A DNA stretch of 64,000 nucleotides from Oligoflexia bacterium. Lineage in GTDB: Bacteria; Bdellovibrionota; Bdellovibrionia; JABDDW01. This document shows, piece after piece, positions 1 to 13,507 of the stretch (position 1 is its first letter; each line of letters begins with the position of its first letter). The notes beneath the pieces were generated by a model. The model was not told the DNA's origin. It did no database searches and worked only from the letters and a program-made list of their open reading frames with translations. The translations under genes and the position numbers were made by a program. Where the stretch lies: NCBI GenBank assembly GCA_023250675.1, contig JAHFAE010000003.1, positions 4,311 through 68,310 on the forward strand, written 5' to 3'.

Positions 1-53
1 CCTACCTTGGGCATTCTGGATTAGATAAAAATCTAGATCTTGTACGGCTCGCC

Positions 54-422
54 ATGTTGAGTAGCGAAAATCCCAATCGACCTGATCCCATTAAGTTTAA
101 AAAGTCTTATCAAGTTGCATTTTTTGATAGTTGCTGCAGTTACAAGTACTTTTCAGATCAATTTTTATTGGCCAAATACAAACAGCATCCAGATCCCATG
201 GTCAATCGCGTGTTAAGTGAGATTGGGAAAATGGAAGTCATAACCTACGGAGTTTCGGTTCCCTGGGGTACACATAATCGCGAAGCCTACGCTTTATTAG
301 ATCCCTTCGTGAATTTTGGTAAATCAACTCCTAACGAATTAAAGCTTCTCGATGTGCTTAGAACTATAGAGCTGCGACAAAACAAATGCACTTACCTCAT
401 CAATTCTGCGTTTATCAAGTAA
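54..422 (+). CDS. hypothetical protein
   Basis: 122-aa ORF starting with ATG at the window edge. No recognisable motif. Confidence 0.3.
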   Translation: MLSSENPNRPDPIKFKKSYQVAFFDSCCSYKYFSDQFLLAKYKQHPDPMVNRVLSEIGKMEVITYGVSVPWGTHNREAYALLDPFVNFGKSTPNELKLLDVLRTIELRQNKCTYLINSAFIK

Positions 423-433
423 TACTTGACCTT

Positions 434-862
434 TCAGATCGCTATAATAATTGAACCGGCGACGATGAGTAATCCCCCCAATAAAACTTTAAGACTTATA
501 GACTCCCCTAAGAATAAAAAAGCCAAAATCATTGCAAGGGGCACACTGAGTTTGTCTACAGGAATCACTTTAGAAGCCGGGCCCAATTGTAGGGCGCGGT
601 AATAACATAGCCACGAAAATCCTGTGGCGATTCCCGATACTACTAAAAAAATGAGACCACGGCTGGAGATTTCAGAAAGTGGTCGCCATTGATTTTTGAT
701 TGAGACGACGATTACTGTAAGCCCGAGAATGACTACGGTTCGAATTAAAGTGGCCAGATTTGAAGGAACTGACTCCACACCGATTTTTCCAAATAAAGCG
801 GTTAGCGCCGCGAATACGGCCGAACCAAGAGCAAAAAACAGCCAAGAAGTAAAAAACATCAT
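434..862 (-). CDS. small EamA/DMT-family membrane transporter-like protein
   Basis: About 140 aa with four hydrophobic helices, typical of single-EamA-domain proteins. The start was moved to the internal ATG preceded by GGAAAGG. Confidence 0.5.
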   Translation of the reverse strand: MMFFTSWLFFALGSAVFAALTALFGKIGVESVPSNLATLIRTVVILGLTVIVVSIKNQWRPLSEISSRGLIFLVVSGIATGFSWLCYYRALQLGPASKVIPVDKLSVPLAMILAFLFLGESISLKVLLGGLLIVAGSIIIAI

Positions 863-1024
863 TTGATTACCTTTCCCTTTGAACACCATTATCTCTATAA
901 ACCGTTGATTTCATAGCCACTTATATTAGTTTTACGTCTAAAACCTTTACGGCACAGGGAAATATCAAGTTATCTAGCCTAACGTCCGAATATGAGTATG
1001 GAATTACCCGACCGCGGAGGGCAT

Positions 1025-2347
1025 ATGAAGTCTCACGTTTTAGTGCTGATCGGAATCGCTTTTGTTTTAGCTGGATGCGGCCAAGCCCCTTTAAAAGAAT
1101 ATCCAGAGACAACTACTGCCGATGCAAGAAGGCTCACTTCAGAAATCGCAACTGGAGCTGCCCAACATTTAGATGTTCTAGCCCCTGAAGAGTTTGTTCA
1201 AGCAAAGAAATTATCTGAAAAAGTAGATGCCGCCATTATAGATGGCGATGACGAAAATGAGATCTTAAGTATTATCGCTCAAAGTCGTGCGGTTTTGAAG
1301 AGTGCTTATACAATCGGCAAATCCAGACGTCCCGCCGTTGACGGCATTATTAGAATTCGACAAATGGCCATGGAGGCTGGAGTAAGAAACTATCCCAAAT
1401 TTGGTTCAGATTTAAATCATGTTGACGACGATCTTCGTGATCAAGTTCATCATCTTGACGATTTGTCGCTAAAGGATTTTTCAAAAATCCAAGGTAAGTA
1501 TATGGATTTAGAATTGGCAACTTTAAAGGCGAACAACTTAGATCATATCATTAAGGCCATAGAAACCGCAAAAGACGAACACAAAGCAAAAAAAGTAGCA
1601 CCCAAATCTCTGAAGACTGCGGAGTTTGATCTTCAAAATGCTGAAAATATGATCGCCGCAAGCCGAGGTAGGCCTGAAACCTACAGGGCTTCAGTTGAAA
1701 AAGCTCGTTATAGTTCTCAGCTTCTAACTGATGTTATCATGGTGGCTACAAAAGGTGAAAATCGGTTAGACGAAGATACGGCACTAAATATTGTATATCA
1801 AAACCGAAGGATTTCGTCACTTCAGACAAACCTAACTGCAGCTAATACCAAAAATAAAACTTTAGATCAAAAAATGACAGTGGCTAACGCAACCTACAAA
1901 CTTCAAAAATCTATCGAAGCGGCCCGACACAGTTTCACTAAGCAAGAAGCCGAAGTTTACCAACAAGGTGATCGGGTACTTATTCGATTGAAGGCAATGA
2001 ATTTTTCAAGTGGTCATGCTGAGCTGCCAGCCTCTTCTTTTACTTTATTGAATAGAGTCAAAAAAGTGGCTATAGATCTGGGATTTCAACACATGATCAT
2101 CGAAGGTCATACCGATTCCGCTGGAAAGTCTGAATCCAATGACCAGCTTTCTCAGTCTCGCGCCGAAGCAGTGGCCCATTATTTTGAGTCAAACGGAGTT
2201 GATGGAGACAAGATTCAGGCTGTGGGATTTGGATTTAAAAAACCAATCGCAAGCAACAAGACGTCTATTGGTAGGTCTCAAAATAGAAGAGTCGATATTA
2301 TTATCACGCCCAATGGCGCTCAAAGAGAAACCGCATCAGAAAAATAA
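1025..2347 (+). CDS. OmpA-family lipoprotein
   Basis: GGAGGG sits 5 nt before the ATG. The N-terminus has a lipobox (LAGC). The C-terminus is an OmpA-like domain (...EGHTDSAGKSESNDQLSQSRAEAV...NRRVDIII). Confidence 0.7.
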   Translation: MKSHVLVLIGIAFVLAGCGQAPLKEYPETTTADARRLTSEIATGAAQHLDVLAPEEFVQAKKLSEKVDAAIIDGDDENEILSIIAQSRAVLKSAYTIGKSRRPAVDGIIRIRQMAMEAGVRNYPKFGSDLNHVDDDLRDQVHHLDDLSLKDFSKIQGKYMDLELATLKANNLDHIIKAIETAKDEHKAKKVAPKSLKTAEFDLQNAENMIAASRGRPETYRASVEKARYSSQLLTDVIMVATKGENRLDEDTALNIVYQNRRISSLQTNLTAANTKNKTLDQKMTVANATYKLQKSIEAARHSFTKQEAEVYQQGDRVLIRLKAMNFSSGHAELPASSFTLLNRVKKVAIDLGFQHMIIEGHTDSAGKSESNDQLSQSRAEAVAHYFESNGVDGDKIQAVGFGFKKPIASNKTSIGRSQNRRVDIIITPNGAQRETASEK

Positions 2348-2640
2348 TTTATTTCTTGCAAGAAATTTAACTATTGATTTTTTGATGGAAGAACCGTGGT
2401 GCCCAAGAGCAACAAGTAGACGAACTGAATTCTGGCGTCAACTGCGATTTAAGAACCTCTGGGAGTTTTGTCATTCTGGTCTTCGAGCTCGAAGCCTATC
2501 CTGAGCCAAAGAACCTCACTGCAAGTCAATTAAGAGGGCTCATAAAGAAATTTGGAAGTAGTACAAAGGCCGCCGTTGCCATTGGAGCTTGCGAGGCCTT
2601 TGTGCGCCAAAAAGCCAAACCTAAGTAATTTTCAATTAAT

Positions 2641-3102
2641 CTAGCAGGACTCCAAAACCTCTTGGAGAAACTCATTCACATGGGGCCACTTGTCATCGTC
2701 AATTCTCTCAATGGTTTCTCTATCTCCATCATAGACATGCTTGTGATGAAACTTATGGTGATCGGGTAAGTTGGACTTTACGTCCCCATGGGGACTGCAA
2801 TATCGAAATAACTTTGAGCCTCCAGGGATAGAGGCGCTGTAGGTATAATCATATGTGCGTGCTCTAGGCCGCTTTTTATTTGACGGATCTATTTCTACAT
2901 TTTTCCTAATATCAACTCTGATTGAATTTCCTTTTGTCGTTCGGATTACAATATTTTCTGCTCTTAAAATTAAAAAGAAGGGCGTGAGTTTCCTATGAAT
3001 ATAAGTCTTAACCGTAACCATATGTTTTGAGTATTGGCGCAGCACACGATCATGCACAGAGAGATAATTCTCCAGGGTATTCCAATCATGTTTGAGTTTC
3101 AT
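2641..3102 (-). CDS. hypothetical protein; downstream gene of an overlapping two-gene cassette
   Basis: 153-aa ORF. Its ATG overlaps the stop of the upstream 89-aa gene (ATGA), which implies translational coupling. It has a His-rich segment (DHHKFHHKH) and an R-x4-H near the N-terminus. No confident family assignment. Confidence 0.5.
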   Translation of the reverse strand: MKLKHDWNTLENYLSVHDRVLRQYSKHMVTVKTYIHRKLTPFFLILRAENIVIRTTKGNSIRVDIRKNVEIDPSNKKRPRARTYDYTYSASIPGGSKLFRYCSPHGDVKSNLPDHHKFHHKHVYDGDRETIERIDDDKWPHVNEFLQEVLESC

Positions 3103-3368
3103 TTTTTTAGAAATGCGACTTGTCTGGCTAGCATGAGGGCATCAAGGTGATCTTCGTTGAAATTTTTTGAGGTCTCTGCCTTTTCTAAAAGGGCTTCTAC
3201 AGAAAGATCATTTTTTGAAGCTAGAATTTCGAGTTCCATAGTTAGAGCCTTGAGGGCTTCTTCCTTGGAAGAATAAAGAGGTACACTCTTCATTACTTCG
3301 TCGAAAAGCTGATTATCTTTTGCAGAATCATCCTTTGTTTTACGTTTTGTTTTCTCAAGGTCTGCCAT
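3099..3368 (-). CDS. hypothetical small acidic helical protein; upstream gene of the cassette
   Basis: 89 aa. GGAGG sits 5 nt upstream of the ATG. The protein is K/E-rich and predicted helical, and its gene overlaps the downstream gene by 4 nt. Confidence 0.5.
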   Translation of the reverse strand: MADLEKTKRKTKDDSAKDNQLFDEVMKSVPLYSSKEEALKALTMELEILASKNDLSVEALLEKAETSKNFNEDHLDALMLARQVAFLKK

Positions 3369-3701
3369 AAGGCCTCCAGTAGAGATATAATAACATAGGT
3401 TTGCGCCAAATCGTTAGTCGAAAATAGCTTTGTTTACGTATAGTTACAACTTTATCCAAACGGTTTTCTTTACTGCCATTTATCCAATTTTTGTTTTTCG
3501 TGACCGTCAAAGGCTGCGGTCAATTCTGATTCCGCACTCCTGCAAACCTGTCTGTGCCAGAAACTACCCTGTCACAGGGTTTGCCTTACGGGTCGTGCGG
3601 GAATTGCCCTTCGCTTTGACTCTCCCATCCATCTCGCCGCTTGTCTTTTGTGAAAGCGGGCTCGATAGAGGGAGTCCCGAAAAACAAAAGGAGGATTTGA
3701 A

Positions 3702-3908
3702 ATGGGAATTGATAAAATAATTGAAATTGCAGTTGGGTTGACACTCATTGCGGCCGCCACGGGGCAATTGCCCAAAGTGGTGAGGCAAGTTCAAATGGCT
3801 CAACTCCGCCTACTTCAAGATTCTAAGACGTCGACATGGGGTCATCTTATGATTATTGATTCCAAGCAAAATTCTCGAAAGGTTTACATTGTTGATCCCC
3901 AAGAGTAG
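3702..3908 (+). CDS. small single-TM membrane protein (68 aa)
   Basis: A perfect AAGGAGG lies 7 nt upstream of the ATG. The protein has a hydrophobic segment IIEIAVGLTLIAAATG. The gene sits in an otherwise 618-bp intergenic gap. Confidence 0.4.
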   Translation: MGIDKIIEIAVGLTLIAAATGQLPKVVRQVQMAQLRLLQDSKTSTWGHLMIIDSKQNSRKVYIVDPQE

Positions 3909-3956
3909 ACGGGGATCACATCTTCCCAACTCATTAGCCCAAAATTAAATCATCAG

Positions 3957-3976
3957 GGTAGTGTCAGATGATCAGC
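3957..3976. terminator. palindrome tgtcag-N8-ctgaca between convergent genes
   Basis: 6-bp stem between the 3' ends of the 68-aa ORF and the HExxH gene. No clear U-tract. Confidence 0.25.
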
Positions 3977-3986
3977 TGACATAACA

Positions 3987-5081
3987 TTAGATGCCCTCAG
4001 GAATCGTCTGAATCAGACTATCTATATTATATTGCCAATCTTCTGATTGAAACAATTTTTCAAGAGCCTGCTGGAATGATGAACCTAATGAAATCTGGGT
4101 TATGAGTAATTTCAATGCTCCAGTCTTATAGTATGCGTCATCATAATTATTTGGCCCCAAACCTACCGCGCAATATTTTAAAATATCTGAGCTGCTCATA
4201 ACACCCAAAAGATTTAGAGTGCTAAGCGCCATATATTCGGCAAAACCTTCAACCATTTCTCCAATAGCCTCCTCTTTAACACACTCTTTACTTTCCGGCG
4301 TTCCATTATAGGCGTTAACCATCTGATACCGCTTGTTCCGCGTTTTAAAGTAATCTTTGATAAGCTGAGTATTATTGTTGGCGGTAAAGGGATTCGATAA
4401 ATTTTTAAATATTTTAAGCAGTATGAGAGATTCTTCATCAAATAAATTTGAAACTTCTTTAGTGACGGAATAGCATTTATTAATTTTCATGGGCTTATGC
4501 CCATATGCCCAGAGCGGCCAAATTTTTCTTTCGCCGAGGTCTGGTCCGCTTTGACCAAATTGATGAAAACCCTCATGAATTAGCATAAAAATAAGAAGCA
4601 TATTTGATTTGATAAATTGTTTAAAAAACGAATCTTTCGTTTTTTCAGCCAGGCCTTTAAAAAATTCAGGCTGAATATTAAAAAGCATGATTTGAGGTTC
4701 ATTCTGTCCCACTTCTTTGGTGAGGTTTTGAGAAAGAAAATTTGAGAAAGTTTCTATGTTGCCTCGCGCTACGCTCATAAAATCATACAAACCATTTTCG
4801 GGAGGAAGTACTGATTTTAAGTAAGAGGGGCCATAAGATCTGCCGCTTTTTAGCATCAATATACACTGGGGATTCACAATCGGGTCAATTAGTGCAATTG
4901 GGAAGGCCGATAAATGGTATCCGTTTATGATTGGAGCAGTTTTAGCTTCTTTGTCTAAAAATTCTTGAATTTGGATCTTCACTGAATGGTCACGAAGAAA
5001 AGAACAATCATCGTCTATCAAGGCCTGACCACTTGCACCTGTCGAAATTATTAACAATATGAAAATAAATACAATCTTCAT
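3987..5081 (-). CDS. secreted HExxH-motif protein (putative zinc metallopeptidase-like)
   Basis: The start was moved to MKIVFIFILLIISTGASGQA, a signal peptide with AGGGAG upstream. The motif LIHEGFHQFGQ has a Glu about 11 residues after the second His. Confidence 0.5.
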   Translation of the reverse strand: MKIVFIFILLIISTGASGQALIDDDCSFLRDHSVKIQIQEFLDKEAKTAPIINGYHLSAFPIALIDPIVNPQCILMLKSGRSYGPSYLKSVLPPENGLYDFMSVARGNIETFSNFLSQNLTKEVGQNEPQIMLFNIQPEFFKGLAEKTKDSFFKQFIKSNMLLIFMLIHEGFHQFGQSGPDLGERKIWPLWAYGHKPMKINKCYSVTKEVSNLFDEESLILLKIFKNLSNPFTANNNTQLIKDYFKTRNKRYQMVNAYNGTPESKECVKEEAIGEMVEGFAEYMALSTLNLLGVMSSSDILKYCAVGLGPNNYDDAYYKTGALKLLITQISLGSSFQQALEKLFQSEDWQYNIDSLIQTIPEGI

Positions 5082-5299
5082 AAACTCCCTTTGGTCAGAG
5101 AAACAATTATCTTGGCAATGCACCGTCAGTTGCGACATATGTGCCAAAAAGAAATCAAATTAAACGACCCAGTGACCTACTAAGCTAGGAAGACCTGGAA
5201 ATGGTTCCTGGGTCGCGGCCGGGTGAGCGCCCTTTCTTGATAATGTGACCCTTGAATGAGGTTAGCTTAGCTTTCTACGGTGTTTCGGGATCGTCAAAA

Positions 5300-5410
5300 A
5301 GAATTCCGAATCACCGTATTCGGTTTTCCGGAATGGCACGGGAACCCGTAAAACATTAAGTCGTCGAATCTGCGTCTGTTTTTAGAAATCATTACGGTAT
5401 TCCGTAAAAT
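5300..5410. repeat. cluster of short palindromes and repeated ATTCCG/CGGAAT and CCGTAAAA motifs
   Basis: Elements seen: ccgaat-N6-attcgg, ttccggaa, acggg-aa-cccgt, and ttacgg-tatt-ccgtaa. GTATTC and CCGTAAAA each occur twice, about 80 and 56 bp apart respectively. The cluster sits in the 560-bp divergent region upstream of the wHTH gene. Confidence 0.5.
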
Positions 5411-5551
5411 ATTGCATTCTCTTAACTTTGATTTTGCAGGTCTTTTCTCATTTTTCTCTATTAATCACATGCATTTAAATCTATTGGCATGATCTTCAAA
5501 AATTCTTGCAATTTAAAAAGGTGAGGAGGAGAGGTGTTTTTTAGATCAATG

Positions 5552-5588
5552 AATCCTCTCCCAGGATTACCGACGCATTTACGTCGGT
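5552..5588 (+). promoter_or_regulatory. two adjacent hairpins (aatcct-ctccc-aggatt; accgacg-cattta-cgtcggt) just upstream of the wHTH gene
   Basis: Perfect 6- and 7-bp inverted repeats lie 55-90 nt before the GTG start at 5643. Confidence 0.35.
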
Positions 5589-5642
5589 TTATTTGAAAAG
5601 TGAAACTTCGATGGACCATTTTTCGAGCCCCCAGAAAGCGAG

Positions 5643-6437
5643 GTGCTTATATTAAGATTTTCTGTTCGTGAAAAACATATTCTAAATTCATTAAATAAAT
5701 ATTCGATTCTTTCAAGTCACGAGCTTTACCAACGTTGCTTTAATGGAGTGTCCCACACCTTCATGATGAAGACTTTGAGGGACCTCATTACGAAAGGGAT
5801 GATCTATCGTGTAAAGGGCCGCTACAACGAGGCTCATTCGTTTGCGCTCACCTGCCGTGGTGCCAAAGGCTTAGGGTTTAACCTTCCACTCTCAAGAGTC
5901 TATTGGCAGACCAGGTACCATGACTTGGCAGTTAATAGAGTGCGCTTTATTTTTGAGGATCTTGGCCTTGGGGAAAAGTTTATTTCAATGAGGGATCTAA
6001 GACTTAAAAAAAATGATTCGATTTTAGAAGCCTTAGGGAATGTAAGAGGGAGTGATGGGGTATTTTTCATTCCATCAGAAGGCGGTAATGAAGTTGTTGT
6101 CATGGAAGTGGAAGTTGCTCAAAAAAAACCATTTGAACACAGACGAATTCTTTCAAAATTCAAAGACAATTCCCAAGTTGGTATCGTTCTCTGCTTTTTA
6201 GCAAGCCCTGCCGAGTATCTAACAGCGTTAACCGAATGGCGAAATTTTGAAAAGAGTAGGTCAACAAAACTTTATGTCGTGCACTTAGGAGAGTTCTTAA
6301 AATTCTCCGGCGATGCGAGGGTAAGAACTCTAAGGGGCATCTTACCTTTCCATAAGGCATTCAATTTAAGAAATTGGGTATCAAAGGTAAAGGAAAATGA
6401 AATTGACCAGAAACTCCTTTGGTCACCGTCATTTTGA
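5643..6437 (+). CDS. hypothetical protein with an N-terminal winged-helix-like region
   Basis: 264-aa ORF with a GTG start; the true start is uncertain and could be the internal ATG at 5763. The N-terminus looks wHTH-like (LRDLITKGMIYRVKGRY). The C-terminal domain is unknown and could be replication-relaxation-like or nuclease-like. Confidence 0.45.
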   Translation: MLILRFSVREKHILNSLNKYSILSSHELYQRCFNGVSHTFMMKTLRDLITKGMIYRVKGRYNEAHSFALTCRGAKGLGFNLPLSRVYWQTRYHDLAVNRVRFIFEDLGLGEKFISMRDLRLKKNDSILEALGNVRGSDGVFFIPSEGGNEVVVMEVEVAQKKPFEHRRILSKFKDNSQVGIVLCFLASPAEYLTALTEWRNFEKSRSTKLYVVHLGEFLKFSGDARVRTLRGILPFHKAFNLRNWVSKVKENEIDQKLLWSPSF

Positions 6438-6518
6438 CCGTCCTGGCGACGGTCATGGGTGAACCGTGAAAAATGTGTTCTTACAGAAGTTAAGCCAGTC
6501 GGAACACGAAGGAATATT

Positions 6519-6625
6519 GATCCCGCAATTTATAAAAGAGTCGCCCTTGACGCCCGTGACCACTCCCCCCCAACCATAGGTGGGAAGTAGTCACGGCCTG
6601 GGCTCAAAAGTTAGATTGCGGGATC
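6519..6625. repeat. nested imperfect inverted repeat (gatcccgcaat...attgcgggatc around cgtgaccact-C7-...-agtagtcacg)
   Basis: The outer arms are 11 bp and perfect. The inner arms match 9 of 10 bp. The centre is C-rich. It lies about 230 bp upstream of the recombinase operon. Confidence 0.5.
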
Positions 6626-6681
6626 AGAGAAATGAAAAATCATGGATGAATTTATAAGTTGTTTTATTTTTAGAGGTGTTG

Positions 6682-6855
6682 ATGAAGTTAGATGAAATGA
6701 CGATTGAAACAGTTCAAGTTAAGATCTTAAATGATGACTACGAAAAGAAATTGACAAATTTAGTAAAAATACTTTTGGAAATTGGAGAGACAACCAATTC
6801 AAGACAGGCTAATAAGGATGAGTCAAAACCGTCTGAAAATTTGGAGGCCGCATGA
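6682..6855 (+). CDS. 57-aa small protein translationally coupled to the serine recombinase (candidate directionality factor or regulator)
   Basis: ATG preceded by AGAGGTG. The stop TGA overlaps the recombinase ATG (ATGA). This ORF is not in the supplied track, presumably because it is under 60 aa. Confidence 0.4.
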   Translation: MKLDEMTIETVQVKILNDDYEKKLTNLVKILLEIGETTNSRQANKDESKPSENLEAA

Positions 6856-8585
6856 AACGAATTGGGCTCTATTTAAGAGTATCCACTGAAGAGCAGGCAA
6901 GAATTACTGACGGGAGTCTCGTCAGTCAGAAAGCCAGGCTTGAAGAATATGTGGCAGGCCTTAACAGGCGAGATAGCGGTTGGGGTCAGATAGTTGACGT
7001 TTACCAAGATACCCTTTCGGCTAAAGACATGAACCGCCCGGAGTTTAAAAGACTCATTGCCGATGTTCGCTCGGGCCGCATCAACCTGATCTTGGCAACA
7101 GAGCTTTCCAGATTGTCGAGGTCCACTAGGGATTTTTGCGAGCTGTGGGATATCTTTAAACAATATAAGACCCGCTTCATAACCCTGCGGGAGCAGTTTG
7201 ATACAACCACGGCCGCAGGTGAGATGATGGTTTTTAACCTCATTAATTTTGCTCAATTTGAAAGAAAACAAACGGCTGAAAGAATATCCGCAAACCAGCT
7301 ATCCCGTGCCAAACGCGGGCTTTGGAACGGTGGCACGATTCCATTGGGTTATACCCGTAACCCCAAAAACCCGGGGCAGCTCATTCCAAATCAGGATGAA
7401 GCCAAAGACGTTGAGACGATTTTTAAGACGTTTCTTGAAACTGGAGCTGTTAGAAAAGCCTGTCAGGCCGTTACAAAGAAGGGGATCTTCTCAAAGTCAT
7501 ATGTGAATAAGCACGGTATTGCAAAGGGTGGTGGCGCTTTCACGGTCCCAAGCCTCTATCAAATCCTCACCAATAAGGCCTATCTTGGAATTAGAGAGAT
7601 CAATAAGAAGAAGTCGACCAGTAAATTGGAGGAAGTGAAAGCGGCGTGGGAGCCGATTGTAAATCGGGAATTATTTGACCTGGTTCAAGAAAGACTTGGA
7701 GCAAATAAGAATAAGTATAAACCTGCCGAGTGGAAAAAATATGCTTATCCGCTCACTGAAAAAATTATCTGTGGTGAATGCGGCAAGAATCTCGGGGGCA
7801 AATCTGCTAACGGCCAGGGCGGGACCTATAATTACTATGCTCATGCAAGGCAGCTTCATAGTGACGGCAAATCGCACTTGAAGCGATGTCAAATGGAGAA
7901 GGTGAGGGCTCAAAGGACCGAAGAGATGGTGATTCGCTCCCTTAGAGACGTTCTCTCAAGGCCGGAAAAGATTGACGAGATGATCCAAGCCTACGCGAAA
8001 CAAAGCCAAGAGGTGATACCTGGGCTAGAGGGAAAGCTTAAGCAAGTCGACATTGAAATTAGGACCCATGGGAAACGGCGCGAGAATTTAATGGAACGTA
8101 TTGCAGATTTGCCGCCAGAAATTAATGCTGATTTATTCTTTGAGAAGATTAAGGCTGTGACTAAAAAACTTGAATCGGCAGACGTCATAAAAGCTGATCT
8201 CATGGCACAGAAAAACAAAGCGACGGGCCAGGTTATTGATAGAGAAGGGTTAAGGCGAAGGCTGCACAATTCCTTGGCGCTCCTAGAATCAAGTCCCAAG
8301 GAGAAACAACGCGAGATCTTTAATAACGTCATCCAGTTTGCAGAAGTTTATCCGATGAAAATGCGGTTGGGACTCTACGCCCCGACCGTTTCCTCAACGC
8401 TGACCGATCAAAAGCTTACTGGTACTGATTCTTATTTAAGAAGGTGTGCCAGTTCGACCAGCGTTAGGAGTGGTGCCTCCGAGGAGAATCGAACTCCTAC
8501 ACCCGTGAAGGTACTGGATTTTGAGTCCAGCGCGTCTACCAGTTCCGCCACAGAGGCAATCAAAAAAAACCTAGTGAGTTCATGA
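6852..8585 (+). CDS. large serine recombinase (integrase/resolvase-type N-terminal domain)
   Basis: The N-terminus MKRIGLYLRVSTEEQ carries the catalytic Ser and a resolvase-like domain (~140 aa), followed by a long recombinase/zinc-ribbon/coiled-coil region (CGECG...). GGAGG precedes the start. The last ~38 codons are read antisense through the tRNA-Leu. Confidence 0.8.
   Translation: MKRIGLYLRVSTEEQARITDGSLVSQKARLEEYVAGLNRRDSGWGQIVDVYQDTLSAKDMNRPEFKRLIADVRSGRINLILATELSRLSRSTRDFCELWDIFKQYKTRFITLREQFDTTTAAGEMMVFNLINFAQFERKQTAERISANQLSRAKRGLWNGGTIPLGYTRNPKNPGQLIPNQDEAKDVETIFKTFLETGAVRKACQAVTKKGIFSKSYVNKHGIAKGGGAFTVPSLYQILTNKAYLGIREINKKKSTSKLEEVKAAWEPIVNRELFDLVQERLGANKNKYKPAEWKKYAYPLTEKIICGECGKNLGGKSANGQGGTYNYYAHARQLHSDGKSHLKRCQMEKVRAQRTEEMVIRSLRDVLSRPEKIDEMIQAYAKQSQEVIPGLEGKLKQVDIEIRTHGKRRENLMERIADLPPEINADLFFEKIKAVTKKLESADVIKADLMAQKNKATGQVIDREGLRRRLHNSLALLESSPKEKQREIFNNVIQFAEVYPMKMRLGLYAPTVSSTLTDQKLTGTDSYLRRCASSTSVRSGASEENRTPTPVKVLDFESSASTSSATEAIKKNLVSS
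8471..8557 (-). tRNA. tRNA-Leu (anticodon CAA)
   Basis: The reverse complement folds as a class II tRNA. The acceptor stem is GCCTCTG/CGGAGGC. The D-arm contains GG. The anticodon stem-loop is CTGGA-CTCAAAA-TCCAG, with U33, anticodon CAA and A37. There is a long variable arm, a T-arm AGGAG-TTCGATT-CTCCT, a discriminator A and an encoded CCA. Confidence 0.85.
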
Positions 8586-8843
8586 TTTAACCCCAGAAAA
8601 ATACAAAAGCAAAACAAACTCCAATAAAAAACCGGGCTAAGAGGTTACTAGAAGTGGCACGACCACGAAAATTCTGCATAGTAACTGTCAAATTGCTCGC
8701 AGAATGGGAGTGTCACTATCGCAACATAATTAAGTAATATCAGTATATTACAATATTACATAAATTAGACTAGGTGGGGGCATGAACATTGCTCACCATT
8801 CTCTCCATAGAAGCTTAGTTTTTAGGCGTAAGGAGAAGATCAG

Positions 8844-10049
8844 ATGGAAAAATTTTTACAAATCGCTGTGGTCGTCGGAACATTGGGAATCTCAGGCTTT
8901 TCCCTAGGAGCTGAAGACTACAATCAAGGATTAAAAAAAGAACTTAGCGAAGTTAAGAAAATTCAGGTTGAAAAAGTAGCTCCAGCTATAAGTTCTGCTG
9001 AATCAATCAACACCGTAACACAAGTTCAGACACAAACCCCTCCGTCTACAAACACGAACCTGCAACCCATCTACATACTGCAACAACCGGCAGCTTCGCC
9101 CCAGGCGCAAGTTCAGCCCGCAACCACCATTGAAGCTGCGCCGGTAAAAGAGTCTCGTGCAGATCAGTTGAGAAAACAAAGAGAAGAAGTTGAACATCAA
9201 ACGGAAAATAAGCTTGTTGAACGACTTGAAGATGATCGCCTCTTATCTGAAAAAGACCGAGCAGACCGACTCTTGGCACCGTTGAATCCACCAACGCCCG
9301 CGGTTTCACCTTCTCCTCTTACTGTCAATCCCCCCATCACGACTGTACCAACTAATGCAACAGTTACTCCGGCGACAGTTGTTCCTCCACCCGTAGTAGC
9401 TCCGGTAATTGTAACAAGAGAAGAAGTACCTACTGTCACAGCTACCCATGATGACCTCATGCGAAACAATGAATCTGAAGAACCTGCTAAGTTCAGCATT
9501 GGTGCCTTGGCCGGTCTTGGTTCTTATCCTTCAGTCGGCAACGTCAACGGCGCCTATGCTGCCGGTGTCCTCATGGATATGCAGTTTGCCGAGCGTTTAG
9601 GACTTGAAACTGCATTTCTTTATTCAAGCTATGACATAAAGAACAACTACAATAATTTTTACTGCCCAGGCTGCGGCGGCAGTCTTGTCACAACTCTCAA
9701 TCAATATAATTTTGATGTTGGTTTGACTTATCATATTTTAGGCGGCCGAGTTTCGCCGGTGGTCGGAGTAATAGCCGACTACACCCGGCGAAGTTATTCA
9801 GATCGAATTCGTTATGGTTCAAATACCGGTTCGACTCGGGGTTCTAATTCCTTTGACGGGGGATTTCTGGTCGGAGTAGACGTTTCGGCAACCAAAAAAC
9901 TAACGGTGGGTATGGATATTCGATATCTCATGAATTTCAGTTACCGCACCGACGACGCACTAGCTTATAACGTAGGTTATCAGCAAGGCGATCCCATTGA
10001 ATCTCTCAATTACTACTTTGCCACATTAAGTTTGAAATTGTCCTTATAA
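8844..10049 (+). CDS. outer-membrane beta-barrel protein with a Pro/Thr/Val-rich linker
   Basis: AAGGAG precedes the start. The protein has a signal peptide, a long low-complexity PT-rich region and a C-terminal segment of alternating hydrophobic residues. Confidence 0.5.
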   Translation: MEKFLQIAVVVGTLGISGFSLGAEDYNQGLKKELSEVKKIQVEKVAPAISSAESINTVTQVQTQTPPSTNTNLQPIYILQQPAASPQAQVQPATTIEAAPVKESRADQLRKQREEVEHQTENKLVERLEDDRLLSEKDRADRLLAPLNPPTPAVSPSPLTVNPPITTVPTNATVTPATVVPPPVVAPVIVTREEVPTVTATHDDLMRNNESEEPAKFSIGALAGLGSYPSVGNVNGAYAAGVLMDMQFAERLGLETAFLYSSYDIKNNYNNFYCPGCGGSLVTTLNQYNFDVGLTYHILGGRVSPVVGVIADYTRRSYSDRIRYGSNTGSTRGSNSFDGGFLVGVDVSATKKLTVGMDIRYLMNFSYRTDDALAYNVGYQQGDPIESLNYYFATLSLKLSL

Positions 10050-10054
10050 TCAAA

Positions 10055-10088
10055 AGCGCTTCAGGATGAGGCGCTTTTTTTTGTTCAA
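10055..10088 (+). terminator. rho-independent terminator
   Basis: agcgcttc-aggat-gaggcgct, followed by T8. Confidence 0.55.
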
Positions 10089-10124
10089 AATGACAAAACT
10101 TCAAAACTCTGGCATCCTGTTGTT

Positions 10125-10817
10125 ATGCACATGACTTCTAAAAGTTTACTCTTATTTCTAGTCCTTTCAGTTTTCGGAACACCCGATGCTTTTGCAACAA
10201 AACAAATGGTTCTTAAATCAGTGGGTGCCGTAGGTGGCAAGGTCATTACAAACCGCGATGTTGAAGCAAATTACATCGTAGATAGGGTGCTGTATAATAA
10301 TGGTTCCTATACTCCTATTAGTCTTGGCACCGAAGAATTTAACTCGGCTCTAGATCGGCTGCTAGTCGAATATATGGTTTTTGAAGAAGCAACGGAGTTT
10401 GGTGTGGCAAAGGTAGCCGATTCTGAAGTTGACCAATCTTTTGGCTCCGTAAAAACTAAATTAAATAACACGGGCCCCATTCATTCAAATTGGTCTTTGT
10501 TAGGATACTCAGAGCCGCAGCTCAAAGAAATGGTGGGAAGAAAACTTCGCTCCAATCGATTCATTAAATATAAGTCTAACTCCAGTTACGTTCAGGTCAG
10601 CGACGAAGAGGCTCGGGATTATTTTAATAAAAACCAATTAAAATTTGGAACGGCTGAATTTGAAGGATTTAAGGTCAATATCAAGAAATTTCTTGGTAAG
10701 AAAAATGCCGACGATCGGCTCCGAGAATGGTTTGAAATTCTTCGAAAAAAGCATAAAGTAAAAAATCTTCAAATTGCCAATGAAGGGCACAGTGTTAAAG
10801 CACCGGCCGATCAATAG
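10125..10817 (+). CDS. secreted protein resembling a SurA N-terminal chaperone domain
   Basis: Signal peptide, then a segment (VITNRDVEANYIVDRVL...LDRLLVEYMVFEEA) resembling SurA/PpiD N-domains. Confidence 0.4.
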   Translation: MHMTSKSLLLFLVLSVFGTPDAFATKQMVLKSVGAVGGKVITNRDVEANYIVDRVLYNNGSYTPISLGTEEFNSALDRLLVEYMVFEEATEFGVAKVADSEVDQSFGSVKTKLNNTGPIHSNWSLLGYSEPQLKEMVGRKLRSNRFIKYKSNSSYVQVSDEEARDYFNKNQLKFGTAEFEGFKVNIKKFLGKKNADDRLREWFEILRKKHKVKNLQIANEGHSVKAPADQ

Positions 10818-11229
10818 TTCCGATCTACCTGATATTCTAAAGATCAATAATCAAGTTCAACTCAATCCGTGGACTCAAGCCGATATTGAAGTCGAAATAT
10901 CAAAACAATGTAATTTTTCTAAAGCAGCACTCAAAGAAGATAAACTCGTTGGCTATTTGCTGGTTCGAGAGTGTGGCAAAGATTTAGAGATTATGTCCAT
11001 AGGAGTTGACCAAAAGCATCAACGCTCCGGTATAGGAAGCGCGTTATTAAAAGAGTTAATCCAATCTAAACCGCCATCCACAGAGCTTTTTTTAGAAGTA
11101 AGTCATGAAAATCAACCGGCACAGGCGATCTATTTAAGGATGGGGTTTGAAACCTACTTGGTTAGAAAATCCTATTACGGAGATGGCAGCAACGCCCTCT
11201 GCATGAAACTTCGCCTTGCAAATCCCTAA
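10780..11229 (+). CDS. rimI: GNAT N-acetyltransferase, RimI-like
   Basis: Contains the GNAT acetyl-CoA motif QRSGIGSALL. Size and position upstream of rimP-nusA fit RimI. Confidence 0.55.
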   Translation: MKGTVLKHRPINSSDLPDILKINNQVQLNPWTQADIEVEISKQCNFSKAALKEDKLVGYLLVRECGKDLEIMSIGVDQKHQRSGIGSALLKELIQSKPPSTELFLEVSHENQPAQAIYLRMGFETYLVRKSYYGDGSNALCMKLRLANP

Positions 11230-11327
11230 TGGTTTTGATAAGTTTCCCTCAATTTAGTAGAACCAATGTTAATAAAAGACTCGTTTAAAATCTGGAGTCT
11301 ATTATTTTCCTTAGTTCTAGGCGCTTT

Positions 11328-11353
11328 GGTGGGCCATTTGGCCCTTTTTTTTT
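11328..11353 (+). terminator. rho-independent terminator
   Basis: gggccatttggccc followed by T10. Confidence 0.6.
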
Positions 11354-11370
11354 ATTATTAGGCAAAAAAT

Positions 11371-11886
11371 TTGGATATTGAAAAAATTGTTACCCTTATA
11401 AGTCCCGTAGTAGAAAAGAGTGGGTATTCACTCTACGACGTGGAATTCATAGGGAGAACGCTACGCGTCAGCATTGATAGGACCGAAGGAATTAGCCTTC
11501 AGGATTGTGTCGACTTGAGCCGCCTCATAAACCCACTTTTAGATGTTGAGGACGCGATCCCGGGCGGTCGTTACGAATTAGAAGTGAGCAGCCCTGGTCT
11601 TGATCGCAACCTTCGAAAACCTCCCCATTTTCAGTCCGTAGTGGGCCATAAAATTCATGTGACAACAGAGGTTCCCTTATCGAATTGGAACGGGGGGCTA
11701 GAAGACAGTTTCTTCCGCAATCGAAAGAATATTAGTGGAATACTAACTTCATTTGACGGGGTCACCATTGCTCTAAACACCGATGGTCGTGACGTTAAAA
11801 TTCCACTGTCAGCAGTTGCAAAAGCATATGTAGATTTTGAAATGAAAACGACACCAAAGAAGGGAAAGAGAGTAGAAAATGGCTGA
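11371..11886 (+). CDS. rimP: ribosome maturation factor RimP
   Basis: Conserved position immediately upstream of nusA, with a RimP-like N-terminus. Confidence 0.75.
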   Translation: MDIEKIVTLISPVVEKSGYSLYDVEFIGRTLRVSIDRTEGISLQDCVDLSRLINPLLDVEDAIPGGRYELEVSSPGLDRNLRKPPHFQSVVGHKIHVTTEVPLSNWNGGLEDSFFRNRKNISGILTSFDGVTIALNTDGRDVKIPLSAVAKAYVDFEMKTTPKKGKRVENG

Positions 11887-13507
11887 TGGTATCTTATTTT
11901 CTGAGTTAAGCCGAATGATAGATCAGGTCGGCAAAGATAAGGGCATTGATAAGAAAATTATTATCGAGGCTGTGAAGATGGCCATGGAAACTGCCGCAAG
12001 AAAGAAATTTGGTGTCAATAAAGAGATCGAAGCACAATTTAACGAAGAAACCGGTGAGCTTGAAATTTTTGAATTTCGCACCGTCGTCGAAGAGATCGAC
12101 GTTGAAGACACAGATATTCTCTTAGAAGACGCTCGAAAGCTGGATTCCGAAGTTCAGATTGGCGATAGTTTAGGAATTAAACTTGATTCCTCTCAACTAG
12201 GTCGAATCGCGGCACAAACTGCAAAACAAATCATCGTTGGGCGAGTTCGTGATGCTGAACGAGAAATCATCTACGCCGAGTTTCAAGAGCGAAAAGGTGA
12301 AATCGCCAGCGGCATAGCCCGCCGAGTTGAACGAGGAGCTATCGTTGTTGATTTAGGTAGAACAGAAGCCTACCTTCCTCAGAGAGAACAAATTCCCGGC
12401 GAAATTTTTAAGCCAGGAGACCGAATTCAAGGATATATTGCAGACGTTCGACAAAGTTTGAGGGGCCCTCAGATTATAATGTCTCGAGCTGACGAGCGAT
12501 ATCTCTCAAAACTTTTTGAGATGGAAGTTCCTGAGATTTACGACGGAATAGTTGAAATCAAAGCTGCTGCCCGTGAGCCCGGAAGCAGAGCTAAGATTGC
12601 TGTATCCAGTAAAGACCCGTCTGTTGATCCAGTAGGCGCCTGTGTTGGTATGAAAGGCAGTCGAGTCCAAAATATCGTTCAAGAATTAAAAGGCGAAAAA
12701 ATTGACATCGTCTCTTGGCATGAAGATTCCACCCGGTTTGTCTGTAATGCCTTAGCTCCAGCTGAAGTAAGCAAGGTCATTATCGATGAAGGTTCTAGAG
12801 AGATGGAAATTGTAGTGCCCGATAACCAACTGAGTCTTGCCATTGGTAAAAAAGGCCAAAACGTGCGTTTAGCGGCCAAACTTTCTGGTTGGAAGTTAGA
12901 TATCTTAAGTGAAACCAAGGTCCAAGCCAAAACCCAAGAGGCTATTTTCAACCTCATGTTAATTCCAGGTATCAGCGAAACCATGGCTCAAAACATTTAC
13001 CAATCGGGCTATGCTTCGCTTCAAGAAATTTCAAAGGCAGCCGTAGACGATTTGGCTCAAATTCCTGGCTACGATCAAGATAAAGCCCAAAAGCTTTTAG
13101 ACACTGTAGTTGAAGTTATTAAGAGTTATGCAGACAGTGGCAAGCCCTTACCACAGAGTGAAGCAGCAGTGATTGCCAAGAGCAGTGGTGCTAGTGGCGC
13201 GAAAGCCTTAGCTGAAGCTAGACTGAAAATGGAATTAAGTGCTTTAAAAGCTGCGACTAATAAGATTTCAGAAGAGCCGCAAGAAAAAACACCTGAACAA
13301 TTAGAAGCAGAGGCTGCAGCCGCTGAACTCTTAGAGATTCGGGGTGTCGGTGAGACAACGGTTGAACAGTTAAAGGCTGCGGGCGTTAAGAGTTTAGATG
13401 ATTTACTAGCAAGGTCAGAAGAAGAACTGAGTGCCATCGATGGTATCGGTGAGAAAAAAGCTAAGCAGCTCAAGACAGATGCTGAAGCCTACAGAAAAGA
13501 AAACTAA
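11879..13507 (+). CDS. nusA: transcription termination/antitermination factor NusA
   Basis: S1 and KH domains (GxxG), acidic repeats at the C-terminus, and the rimP-nusA-infB synteny. Confidence 0.9.
   Translation: MADGILFSELSRMIDQVGKDKGIDKKIIIEAVKMAMETAARKKFGVNKEIEAQFNEETGELEIFEFRTVVEEIDVEDTDILLEDARKLDSEVQIGDSLGIKLDSSQLGRIAAQTAKQIIVGRVRDAEREIIYAEFQERKGEIASGIARRVERGAIVVDLGRTEAYLPQREQIPGEIFKPGDRIQGYIADVRQSLRGPQIIMSRADERYLSKLFEMEVPEIYDGIVEIKAAAREPGSRAKIAVSSKDPSVDPVGACVGMKGSRVQNIVQELKGEKIDIVSWHEDSTRFVCNALAPAEVSKVIIDEGSREMEIVVPDNQLSLAIGKKGQNVRLAAKLSGWKLDILSETKVQAKTQEAIFNLMLIPGISETMAQNIYQSGYASLQEISKAAVDDLAQIPGYDQDKAQKLLDTVVEVIKSYADSGKPLPQSEAAVIAKSSGASGAKALAEARLKMELSALKAATNKISEEPQEKTPEQLEAEAAAAELLEIRGVGETTVEQLKAAGVKSLDDLLARSEEELSAIDGIGEKKAKQLKTDAEAYRKEN

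Follow-up and report, generated by a model that had tools for sequence, protein, structure and literature searches.

The window (the whole stretch of 64,000 nucleotides that was analysed) very probably carries an integrative element of ~6.07 kb (6,074 bp; positions ~2397-8470) at the extreme 3' end of a chromosomal tRNA-Leu(CAA) gene. The element would have been inserted there by its own large serine recombinase (LSR), whose gene would contain the attachment site attP in its 3' part, so that insertion would cut off the enzyme's own DNA-binding tail and separate the recombinase body from a helix-turn-helix (HTH) domain that now lies at the element's opposite end. Our high confidence covers this explanation as a whole. 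Comparison with related loci establishes, at the level of sequence alone, the overlap of the recombinase gene with the tRNA, the conservation of its phase, the end of recombinase homology, a second core, an in-phase conserved tail, and the geometry of the arms.

Table 1. Predicted features of the element and its borders (window positions; names of attachment-site parts follow the proposed mechanism)
Feature	Position	Strand	Remarks
Putative attB-left flank	2348-2395	.	original sequence downstream of tRNA 3' end; between OmpA-like gene (992-2347) and element
Left core copy (attL)	2396-2403	.	8 bp, GTGGTGCC; same 8-mer at 8470-8477
Putative detached recombinase 3' end ("ext")	2398-2628	+	core GA codons, 74 codons (2404-2625), stop TAA 2626-2628
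Putative P' arm of attP, now in attL	2404-2426	+	conserved GTAGACGAAC motif (2414-2423 plus next bases)
Two cargo ORFs, 153 aa and 89 aa	2641-3102, 3099-3368	-	no Pfam or PHROGs match
Cargo ORF, 386 aa	3987-5147	-	hydrophobic N-terminus; no Pfam or PHROGs match
264-aa ORF	5643-6437	+	recurs in some sister elements; no Pfam match above cutoff
Conserved hairpin/palindromic cis element	6518-6626	+	upstream of small ORF and recombinase
59-aa ORF	6676-6855	+	stop overlaps recombinase start (ATGA)
Recombinase ORF	6852-8585	+	577 aa; first in-frame stop TGA at 8583-8585
Conserved LSR body	6852-8477	+	residues 1-542; C-terminal motif SSTSVRSGA
Putative P arm of attP, now in attR	8451-8470	+	AGTTCG 8451-8456 (-20..-15), inverted T-loop mimic
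Right core copy (attR)	8470-8477	.	GTGGTGCC; antisense to tRNA nt 70-76, with one further base
tRNA-Leu(CAA), presumed integration target	8471-8557	-	intact; ARAGORN
Putative integration-created recombinase tail	8478-8585	+	residues 543-577 plus stop; template, antisense of tRNA and its 5' flank

The recombinase, its probable attachment sites, and its relatives

Judged by its sequence, the product of the recombinase open reading frame (ORF) is an LSR. Its domains fulfil two criteria for this class, namely (i) a Resolvase catalytic domain with the nucleophilic serine (PF00239, residues 6-156, 1.2e-30) and (ii) a Recombinase domain (PF07508, residues 182-282, 1.8e-16) followed by a zinc ribbon (Zn_ribbon_recom, PF13408, residues 300-365, 7e-7), all in Pfam. 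The protein further matches the PHROGs integrase family phrog_95 (1.7e-96) and, in the PDB, the integrases of TP901-1 (N-terminal domain, 8e-15), SPbeta (SprA), and A118. In an alignment of 32 homologues, the catalytic-pocket residues, including R9 and S11, are unchanged, and C307, C310, C346, S535, and G541 are invariant. No second Resolvase-domain ORF, such as a DsiA-like small serine recombinase, was found within 2397-8470 with Pfam or PHROGs, and the sole recombinase in the element being of the serine family, the tyrosine integrase criterion of the Islander signature is not fulfilled. The tRNA gene was also recovered with Rfam (RF00005, 8474-8557, 57.8 bits), and there is no tmRNA in the window. 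Since the right flank of the window (encoding an outer-membrane protein, an acetyltransferase, RimP, and NusA) is syntenic at one related locus (L167), the tRNA is taken to be chromosomal.

A generic repeat search over positions 1-12000 did not detect the left element end because the core is just 8 bp long; this end was instead located by tblastn with the tails of unusually long homologues and then confirmed by comparison across the family. We place the element at ~2397-8470 because the core recurs on the left with an in-phase, conserved HTH tail after it. The core, TGGTGC(C), corresponds to the 3' end of the tRNA (CCA, A73, C72, and G71), with the TGG at 2397-2399 of the left copy representing the CCA; the intact tRNA thus lies at one end of the element, and the displaced tRNA fragment at the other is just 7 nt long (TGGTGCC, within 2396-2403). 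In the 11 loci for which both junctions are available, the cores measure 6-16 nt and always cover TGGNNN, and the elements measure 3.4-9.9 kb. The attB-left flank contains no recombinase-arm motif; at two related loci (L013 and L010), a terminator-like hairpin makes up the corresponding flank and adjoins the core directly, as would be expected of the native sequence downstream of a tRNA. Inside the element, the sequence downstream of the tRNA yielded no convincing terminator. A third copy, CCGTGGTGCC, at 5855-5864, in frame within the 264-aa ORF, was considered as a junction and rejected, since it lacks both a P' motif at +24 and homology to the tail.

The P-arm DNA doubles as the code for the conserved ...SSTSVRSGA peptide motif, and its consensus, GGTTCG-N14-TGG, holds at the DNA level across 45 loci. 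On the other side of the core, the CGAACT of the P' arm (2421-2426) occupies +24..+29, counted from the T of TGG, and CGAAC or a near variant stands at +24 in all 11 reconstructed attP sites. The corresponding CGAACT of the tRNA T-loop (+ strand, 8490-8495) occupies +19..+24, its CGAAC thus starting at +19, and the tRNA T-loop is, by sequence, the B-type arm of the attachment site. Measured from a centre at tRNA nt 72/71, each attP T-loop mimic (GTTCG/CGAAC) is 19.5 bp away and the real T-loop 5 bp nearer, giving 50-bp attP-like and 40-bp attB-like sites; there is an imperfect palindrome at 8443-8459/8487-8503. This geometry, with attP arms ~5 bp longer than attB arms, fits that of a canonical LSR as far as sequence can tell, the rule itself having been established in structural studies of LI integrase. 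The crossover can be confined to TGGNNN and is inferred to fall at or near tRNA nt 72/71, its exact cleavage site being undetermined. The symmetry centre is GC, a palindromic dinucleotide, in 7 of the 11 loci; in characterised serine integrases, a palindromic central dinucleotide would abolish polarity, and this observation counts against our explanation.

The 45 related Bdellovibrionota loci and the window together adjoin tRNA genes for 11 amino acids, and a tRNA-Phe (L169) provides a 12th specificity. The closest relatives (68-71% identity) are spread over three tRNAs (Leu-CAA, Leu-TAA, and Phe-GAA), which implies continuing target turnover. That turnover bears on whether the element, having integrated as we propose, is now a fossil, immobile and with a relic recombinase, which we consider unlikely but by no means negligible. 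Neither a circular or excised form of the element nor an empty attB was found, and excision activity, and with it any excision still occurring, therefore remains an inference; many related loci, moreover, hold decayed remnants, truncated recombinases, and tandem debris. In the window itself, however, the 542-residue body is intact, with every catalytic and zinc-ribbon invariant in place, and so are the two arms, the core, and the 74-codon tail, which speaks against a relic. A metagenome scan returned no match to the exact attP, attB, attL, or attR of the window element, and the three matches to a generic attP pattern were tandem or remnant junctions or lay on contigs too short to judge. The recombinase family was absent from IMG/VR, where only distant phage LSRs (~30% identity) occur.

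A probable detached recombinase end

An earlier note on this DNA had proposed that the attachment site lies inside the 3' end of the recombinase gene and that integration replaced the native C-terminus, and it had predicted a different C-terminus for the excised form. Both ideas gain support from the open frame at 2404-2625, which lies 6,074 bp upstream, directly after the second core and in the same codon phase as the recombinase. Its 74 codons, none of them Met, specify a β-hairpin and an HTH; by tblastn, sister elements carry homologous tails at their far ends, encoded on the recombinase strand. Tail homology begins exactly at the core "GA" in 206 database clusters; further, among 120 database ORFs from the tail family, 94 show "GA....VDEP" behind a stretch of 2-58 unrelated residues, so the homology starts at the core and not at any conserved start. 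Although the linker joining core and HTH is not of constant length, none of the 17 junctions examined breaks the frame. With a dN/dS of 0.14-0.29, the HTH tail is, by this sequence measure, under purifying selection, although part of the conservation at its N-terminus (VDEP = GTAGACGAACC) could reflect a constraint on the DNA site rather than on the protein. The HTH weakly resembles that of P22 Cro; modelled from its single sequence with AlphaFold, the tail reached a pLDDT of 51.5, a low confidence.

It might be argued that the HTH ORF is a small element gene in its own right (e.g., excisionase- or RDF-like), that the recombinase ends at about residue 542, and that the run-on in the circle is incidental. 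Excisionases are common among small HTH proteins encoded at element ends, gene callers annotate family members as separate hypothetical proteins of 59-141 aa, and a TTG inside one tail (L013) could permit independent translation. We nevertheless find this improbable, as an independent gene would not account for homology that sets in precisely at the core after unrelated sequence with variable pseudo-starts, for a window copy entirely without Met, or for a frame that stays continuous with the recombinase despite linker indels. A further point in its favour is the lack of a full-length recombinase-tail fusion among the best database matches (profile searches for such fusions returned just short ORFs or fragments); a further point against it is that, at the seven related loci at which a recombinase lies directly upstream of a tail (L001-L004, L017, L165, and L170), the two are fused in frame. 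These fusions resemble junctions between elements that are tandem or decayed more than they resemble free circles, which counts against our explanation. Similarly, two proteins encoded without a tRNA downstream (P0014, 631 aa, and P0035, 579 aa) were considered as un-integrated attP forms and reinterpreted as tandem junctions; the left end of L001 has a type-1 tail, whereas the type-2 tail fused in P0014 belongs to a more distant clade. The two tail types yield an hhalign probability of only 12%, and their homology is therefore unproven.

The recombinase frame within the tRNA gene

At the other end of the element, the recombinase ORF does read antisense through tRNA-Leu to its first in-frame stop, as the earlier note had stated. 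That note had also ascribed the last ~38 codons to the opposite strand of the tRNA; the antisense templating stands, but the number does not, for the tRNA itself templates 29 codons, and the last nine, the stop among them, come from the 28 nt past its 5' end (8558-8585). In the 32-sequence alignment, conservation runs up to the invariant S535 and G541 and then ends, the homology of relatives stopping at G541/A542, which coincides with the tRNA CCA end and the first acceptor bases. A conserved C-terminus continuing through the overlap would have refuted the idea of an integration scar; instead, the tails past G541 vary with the tRNA that templates them, those of relatives at other tRNAs being unrelated and 4 to >60 residues long. 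In many relatives, the ORF meets an in-frame TGA supplied by the T-loop and thus ends after 21 nt of tRNA sequence. Moreover, the 3'-terminal base of the tRNA falls on position 3 of a recombinase codon in 44 of 46 loci (45 relatives and the window), an overlap that, on this sequence evidence, is far beyond chance. That the tRNA-overlapping segment is a real, selected, functional Ser/Thr-rich C-terminus can be set aside almost entirely: the frame is open for 35 codons past the core and one homologue (P0002) has nearly the same tail, but this homologue lies at the same tRNA-Leu(CAA) site and thus has the same template, conservation of the tail was looked for among relatives at different tRNAs and not found, and so common a stop follows simply from the T-loop.

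Proposed mechanism, known systems, and other contents

In the mechanism that we propose, attP would comprise a P arm, a core, and a P' arm, of which the P arm would combine the conserved ...SSTSVRSGA code with an inverted T-loop mimic (GTTCG), and the P' arm would be a second T-loop mimic (GTAGACGAAC) at the start of the 74-codon HTH tail. The attB site would have the acceptor and T-arm of the tRNA as one half and the flank downstream of the tRNA as the other. Recombination between attP and attB would (i) leave the tRNA sequence unchanged, (ii) fuse the recombinase body to 35 nonsense codons from the tRNA antisense strand, and (iii) strand the HTH tail at the far end without a conserved start codon, whereas excision would rejoin body and tail into a 616-aa integrase. 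The excised circle would be expected to carry the junction ...GTTAGGAGTGGTGCCCAAGAGCAACAAG..., and excision would be expected to yield ...CCAGCGTTAGGAGTGGTGCCCAAGAGCAACAAGTAGACGAAC... as the attP junction and ...GATGGAAGAACCGTGGTGCCTCCGAGGAGAATCGAAC... as the attB junction.

With attP inside the integrase gene, the C-terminal HTH would be present only in the excised state; that its loss changes the activity or regulation of the enzyme with integration state is inferred. We tentatively suggest, while regarding it as somewhat less probable than its negation, that this LSR clade of Bdellovibrionota recognises the universally conserved T-loop and the acceptor end of tRNAs, has T-loop mimics in its own attP for this purpose, and uses integration as a switch, the full-length HTH enzyme being made only from the circle or beside a new tandem element and the integrated copy being tail-less. 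This raises the question of whether a serine integrase can sense its own integration state without, or besides, a separate directionality factor; if the switch reading were true, directionality or expression control dependent on integration state would be built in.

An integrase gene altered in this way is, as the earlier note held, unusual for a serine recombinase, but it is not without precedent, since dsiB of the Dehalococcoides ssrA-specific islands has the same 3' overlap (McMurdie et al. 2011, PMC3146451). DsiB, a CcrB-like LSR, integrates at the 3' end of the tmRNA gene ssrA, and the 3' end of its gene always overlaps attL; the frame closes only past the island, with a stop codon in ssrA or a neighbouring island, alignments diverge in this part, and McMurdie et al. 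proposed that dsiB may be complete only on the circle or beside a tandem island (PMC3146451). By analogy, this is the closest precedent for the window element, sequence relatedness to DsiB being outside our comparison. In both, the integrase 3' end overlaps the att junction, here antisense into the target RNA gene. Unlike DsiB, which targets ssrA, the present family targets ordinary tRNA genes, with at least 12 amino-acid specificities represented, is hosted by Bdellovibrionota, lacks (in the window element) a DsiA-like companion small serine recombinase, and has a detached part that could be identified, namely the conserved HTH tail under purifying selection.

The phage LSRs (phiC31, Bxb1, TP901-1, A118/LI, and SPbeta SprA) share with the window enzyme the order Resolvase, Recombinase, zinc ribbon, as well as short quasi-palindromic sites in which the attP arm motifs lie ~5 bp further from the centre than those of attB. 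Their targets are protein-coding or intergenic and their attP lies outside the int ORF, whereas the window family targets the tRNA 3' end from an attP inside it, has only one conserved attB arm (the tRNA), and carries an extra C-terminal HTH. In the Myxococcus phage Mx8 (IntP) and in Sulfolobus SSV1, attP lies within int, and integration alters or splits the integrase gene, as it would have altered the window gene. Islander-type tyrosine-integrase islands likewise integrate at tRNA 3' ends and regenerate the tRNA. The recombinases of all these systems (Islander-type, Mx8, and SSV1) are, however, unrelated in family and chemistry to the serine integrase of the window, and the duplicated tRNA segment of the window family, unlike that of Islander-type islands, is only 6-16 nt long.

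According to the Islander paper, no serine-family integrase was known to act on tRNA or tmRNA genes, and such targeting has been held to be a tyrosine-integrase trait; here, an LSR family appears to use at least 12 kinds of tRNA at one fixed position. The apparent logic is that the outer DNA-binding motif of the enzyme matches the invariant T-loop, with two inverted mimics at the canonical +5-bp spacing in attP. If true, this would be a natural integrase family retargetable among tRNA genes, and, serine integrases being the preferred integrases for genome engineering, enzymes that recognise a conserved feature of tRNAs could provide natural landing sites in many organisms. About 200 orphan "hypothetical" families of 60-140 aa would also be explained as detached gene ends.

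Among the other contents of the element, the 264-aa ORF has homologues ~1.2 kb upstream of the recombinase at four related loci (L006, L026, L053, and L074; tblastn). The 59-aa ORF has a positional and weakly similar homologue in L013 (9813-10001), and small ORFs occupy its position in L004, L167, and L169; it is a candidate accessory or directionality factor by inference only. The hairpin between these two ORFs (minimum free energy, -51.8 kcal/mol; z = -5.6) matched no Rfam family. Its core is conserved at 11 other loci, where it precedes the recombinase by ~300-350 nt, with compensatory changes at 6 of the 15 predicted pairs.

Recombinase homology and the tRNA 3' terminus

The ORF at 6852-8585 is identified as a large serine recombinase by its Resolvase (6-156), Recombinase (182-282) and Zn_ribbon_recom (300-365) domains, by its match to the PHROG integrase phrog_95 (1.7e-96), and by its matches to the solved TP901-1, SPbeta SprA and A118 integrases. 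It runs antisense through the entire tRNA-Leu(CAA) (Rfam tRNA model match at 8474-8557, 57.8 bits), and its first in-frame stop was confirmed where the earlier note had placed it. Its last ~38 codons had all been ascribed there to the tRNA, which holds for 29 of them; the other nine derive from the tRNA 5' flank. This tRNA is the sole one in the 64-kb window, and the gene order of its right flank is identical in the related locus L167.

Our database search found 1,154 relatives of the recombinase, of which the best 120 are 49-77% identical and come mostly from Bdellovibrionales MAGs. Their common C-terminal motif is (R)xGS[ST][ST]Vxx-G[AG], past which the tails diverge, either resembling tRNA antisense reads (NRTPTP, TRTPTP) or ending in ...GAPGRT and a stop. 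Alignment of 32 sequences shows Ser535 and Gly541 as the last invariant residues; the G541-A542 codons, GGTGCC, overlap TGGTGCC at 8471-8477, the antisense of tRNA G70-G71-C72-A73-C74-C75-A76, which places the limit of homology at the tRNA 3' terminus. A C-terminus conserved across the tRNA-overlapping segment would have made the overlap functional coding sequence; that homology stops at this terminus favours an integration junction. Two more distant relatives (L029 10001-12172 and L075 1-1953; ~34-38% identity) are considerably extended at the C-terminus (723 and 650 aa), where a distinct HTH-like segment forms the end; neither is followed by a tRNA, and they may have a different attP arrangement or non-tRNA targets.

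Features of the element, its flanks and related loci (window positions unless a locus is named)
Feature	Position	Strand	Remarks
Core 8-mer, left copy	2396-2403		
Detached tail	2404-2625		74 codons; stop 2626-2628
ORF, function unknown	2641-3102		no Pfam or PHROGs match
ORF, function unknown	3099-3368		no Pfam or PHROGs match
ORF, function unknown	3987-5147		no Pfam or PHROGs match
264-aa ORF, function unknown	5643-6437		homologues in four sister loci
Conserved hairpin	6518-6626 (core 6555-6597)		MFE -51.8 kcal/mol, z = -5.6, 12-bp stem
59-aa ORF	6676-6855		stop overlaps recombinase ATG (ATGA)
Recombinase ORF	6852-8585	+	577 aa; first in-frame stop TGA 8583-8585
Core 8-mer, right copy	8470-8477		
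tRNA-Leu(CAA)	8471-8557	-	ARAGORN
Right flank, ordinary chromosome	8844-13507		outer-membrane beta-barrel protein, 230-aa ORF, acetyltransferase-like ORF, RimP, NusA
Remnant left flank, L011	7370-7401		
Remnant left flank, L054	1711-1818		
Remnant left flank, L017	7389-8069		
Remnant left flank, L166	3986-4033		
Remnant left flank, L170	3147-3755		

The detached C-terminal tail

Two unusually long homologues, P0014 and P0035, have a common non-tRNA tail past the 'GA', and with such tails as probes the left end was located at 2380-2630. Here a second copy of the 8-mer GTGGTGCC is followed, in the recombinase codon phase, by the open tail, which encodes QEQQVDELNSGVNCDLRTSGSFVILVFELEAYPEPKNLTASQLRGLIKKFGSSTKAAVAIGACEAFVRQKAKPK. 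The different native C-terminus predicted in the earlier note is thus matched by an in-phase segment at the far end, which, together with the end of homology at the tRNA 3' terminus, supports an attachment site inside the recombinase 3' end, where integration replaces the native C-terminus. Joining 8477 to 2404 would yield a 616-aa protein.

Type-1 tail homologues were found by tblastn in L010, L011, L012, L013, L016, L017, and L020, on the recombinase's strand and 2-2.5 kb upstream of it, and also close to the left end of L001. In the more distant clade (L019, L023, L025, L047, L054, L058, L060, and L070), the equivalent position holds a second tail type, EEPL..YPIQWR.PR.NLAELAKLRWI.GWS.RELAKHYG.... 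In all 17 reconstructed junctions the T of the core falls at the third codon position of the tail frame, and the linker after the core differs in length among them, with the frame open throughout. Both junctions are available for 11 loci; there the block they share measures 6-16 nt and in every case includes TGGNNN, with element sizes of 3.4-9.9 kb (6,074 bp in the window).

The tail is a genuine protein-coding fragment without a start of its own: type-1 tails show pairwise dN/dS of 0.14-0.29, and the window copy has no Met. A tail profile search returned 206 database clusters, the best 120 being 59-141-aa 'hypothetical proteins'; in 94 of these 120 the conserved sequence starts at 'GA....VDEP', after 2-58 unrelated residues that are sometimes an older recombinase remnant (...GSSTVGN or ...SNSLTF). 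The C-terminal part bears a weak Cro-like HTH resemblance (Pfam P22_Cro 0.043; PDB 1rzs 0.11), and a single-sequence structure model was of low confidence. By inference only, the tail could be an integration requirement, bias directionality, or mediate autoregulation.

tRNA targeting and attachment-site anatomy

Our family scan, with one genome per species, gave 79 loci, nearly all from Bdellovibrionota; Bdellovibrio sp. HCB-162, whose genome is complete, is among the sources. At 45 of these loci the recombinase reading frame extends antisense into the 3' end of a tRNA gene (Leu, Met, Ser, Arg, Val, Pro, Ala, Gln, Gly, His, or Asp), and one of three further loci from an exact-protein look-up adds tRNA-Phe. 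The tRNA terminal base is codon position 3 in 44/46 loci, the window counted. In many ORFs the stop comes exactly 21 nt inside the tRNA, since the recombinase frame reads a TTCAA T-loop as TGA; TTCGA, the window's type, is read through. The window's three closest relatives (68-71% identity) lie at tRNA-Leu(CAA), tRNA-Leu(TAA), and tRNA-Phe(GAA).

With position 0 set at the T of TGG, the attP P arm (consensus of 45 loci, GGTTCGnnTAnnnTnAnnAT followed by TGG) carries GGTTCG at -20..-15, with the variant AGTTCG at 8451-8456 in the window, and the P' arm carries CGAAC at +24..+28, inside GTAGACGAAC, in 11/11 loci. This makes the attP arms symmetric about +4.5, a point that lies between tRNA nt 72 and 71, with a span of 50 bp. 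The tRNA-arm CGAAC, at +19, is the antisense of G53-T54-Psi55-C56-R57 and lies 5 bp closer in than its P' counterpart, implying a 40-bp attB. For serine integrases, work on the LI integrase established that the zinc-ribbon-domain motif is ~5 bp more distant from the centre in attP than in attB, and the arm spacing of this family matches that rule. From this geometry, the attP arms are inverted mimics of the T-loop, and the conserved peptide motifs GS(T/N) and VDEP are these mimics read as codons. The other attB arm, the downstream flank of the tRNA, has no conserved motif; in L013 and L010 a terminator-like hairpin abuts the core there.

Since TGGN (N73-CCA) comes from the element, the tRNA is restored without change and identity always reaches position 0; on the opposite side of the core, identity ends at +5 in 4/11 loci. 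The symmetric centre is a palindromic GC in seven of the 11, the window included, and in characterised serine integrases a palindromic centre would abolish polarity. The only dinucleotide non-palindromic in all 11 loci is GG at +1/+2. Judged from sequence, crossover would fall within TGGNNN, with no finer placement. A third copy of CCGTGGTGCC (5855-5864), in frame inside the 264-aa ORF, was dismissed as a chance match, having no P' motif and no tail homology after it, and is at most a potential pseudo-site.

Probable tandem arrays, known systems and cargo

The search for a circular or excised form advised in the earlier note was unsuccessful: no circular form and no empty tRNA site was found, an exact metagenome search for the window element's attP, attB, attL or attR gave 0 matches, and the recombinase family is absent from IMG/VR. 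Recombinase-tail fusions are present in L001-4, L017, L165, and L170, and the most plausible reading of them is as junctions within tandem or decayed arrays, in which a newcomer inserting beside the tRNA would lend its tail to the older element's recombinase. Many elements have as left flank an old recombinase 3' remnant (P arm, ...GSxTLTxGA) and not the native tRNA flank, which implies that insertion beside the tRNA recurred, that tandem arrays formed, and that older copies decayed; such remnants are fused in frame to the newer element's tail. The native tRNA terminator is displaced by 6 kb, and no convincing terminator was found inside the window element downstream of the tRNA, from which we infer that transcription reading through the tRNA may continue, antisense, into the recombinase gene.

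The Islander paper says that tRNA and tmRNA genes are not known as targets of serine-family integrases. DsiB, the large serine recombinase of Dehalococcoides ssrA islands, has the same architecture at a tRNA-like target, and the authors who described it raised the possibility that the dsiB gene is whole only in the circular form or next to a tandem island (PMC3146451). Unlike DsiB, the present family targets ordinary tRNAs of many specificities, and the window element lacks a partner like the small serine recombinase DsiA; further, the detached part is here identified as a conserved HTH under selection, and the T-loop-mimic geometry is shown. No description of this arrangement in Bdellovibrionota was found in the literature searched, although later reports cannot be excluded.

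Within the element, the 264-aa ORF appears to be a semi-conserved module, with homologues ~1.2 kb upstream of the recombinase in L006, L026, L053, and L074. The gap that precedes the small ORF and the recombinase holds this very stable hairpin, whose core (CCGTGACCACTCCCCCCCAAC...GGTGGGAAGTGGTCACGG) is also kept in 11 further loci of the family, ~300-350 nt before the recombinase. Across the 12 loci, Watson-Crick-to-Watson-Crick compensatory changes occur at 6 of 15 predicted pairs, and G-U at none. It matches no Rfam family; an RNA, a cruciform, and a palindromic operator are all possible. The 59-aa ORF, without a family match, has a weak homologue in L013 (9813-10001) and small ORFs at the same position in L004, L167, and L169, and is a candidate directionality factor or regulator.

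The L013 element (Bdellovibrio sp. HCB-162, NZ_CP178861, 8221-11662) is a minimal member of 3,441 bp, made up of the tail, one ORF of 165 aa with a signal peptide, another of 62 aa, and the recombinase; it lies between a terminator hairpin and tRNA-Leu(TAG), adjoining gcvH/gcvT. These small elements can be defence-gene carriers: the ~10.7-kb sister element in L001 bears anti-phage-type cargo at 315-5376, comprising DarT with a Macro domain (DarTG-like), an Mrr restriction enzyme, an SNF2/DEAD helicase with an AEP-TOTE domain, and an IS transposase.
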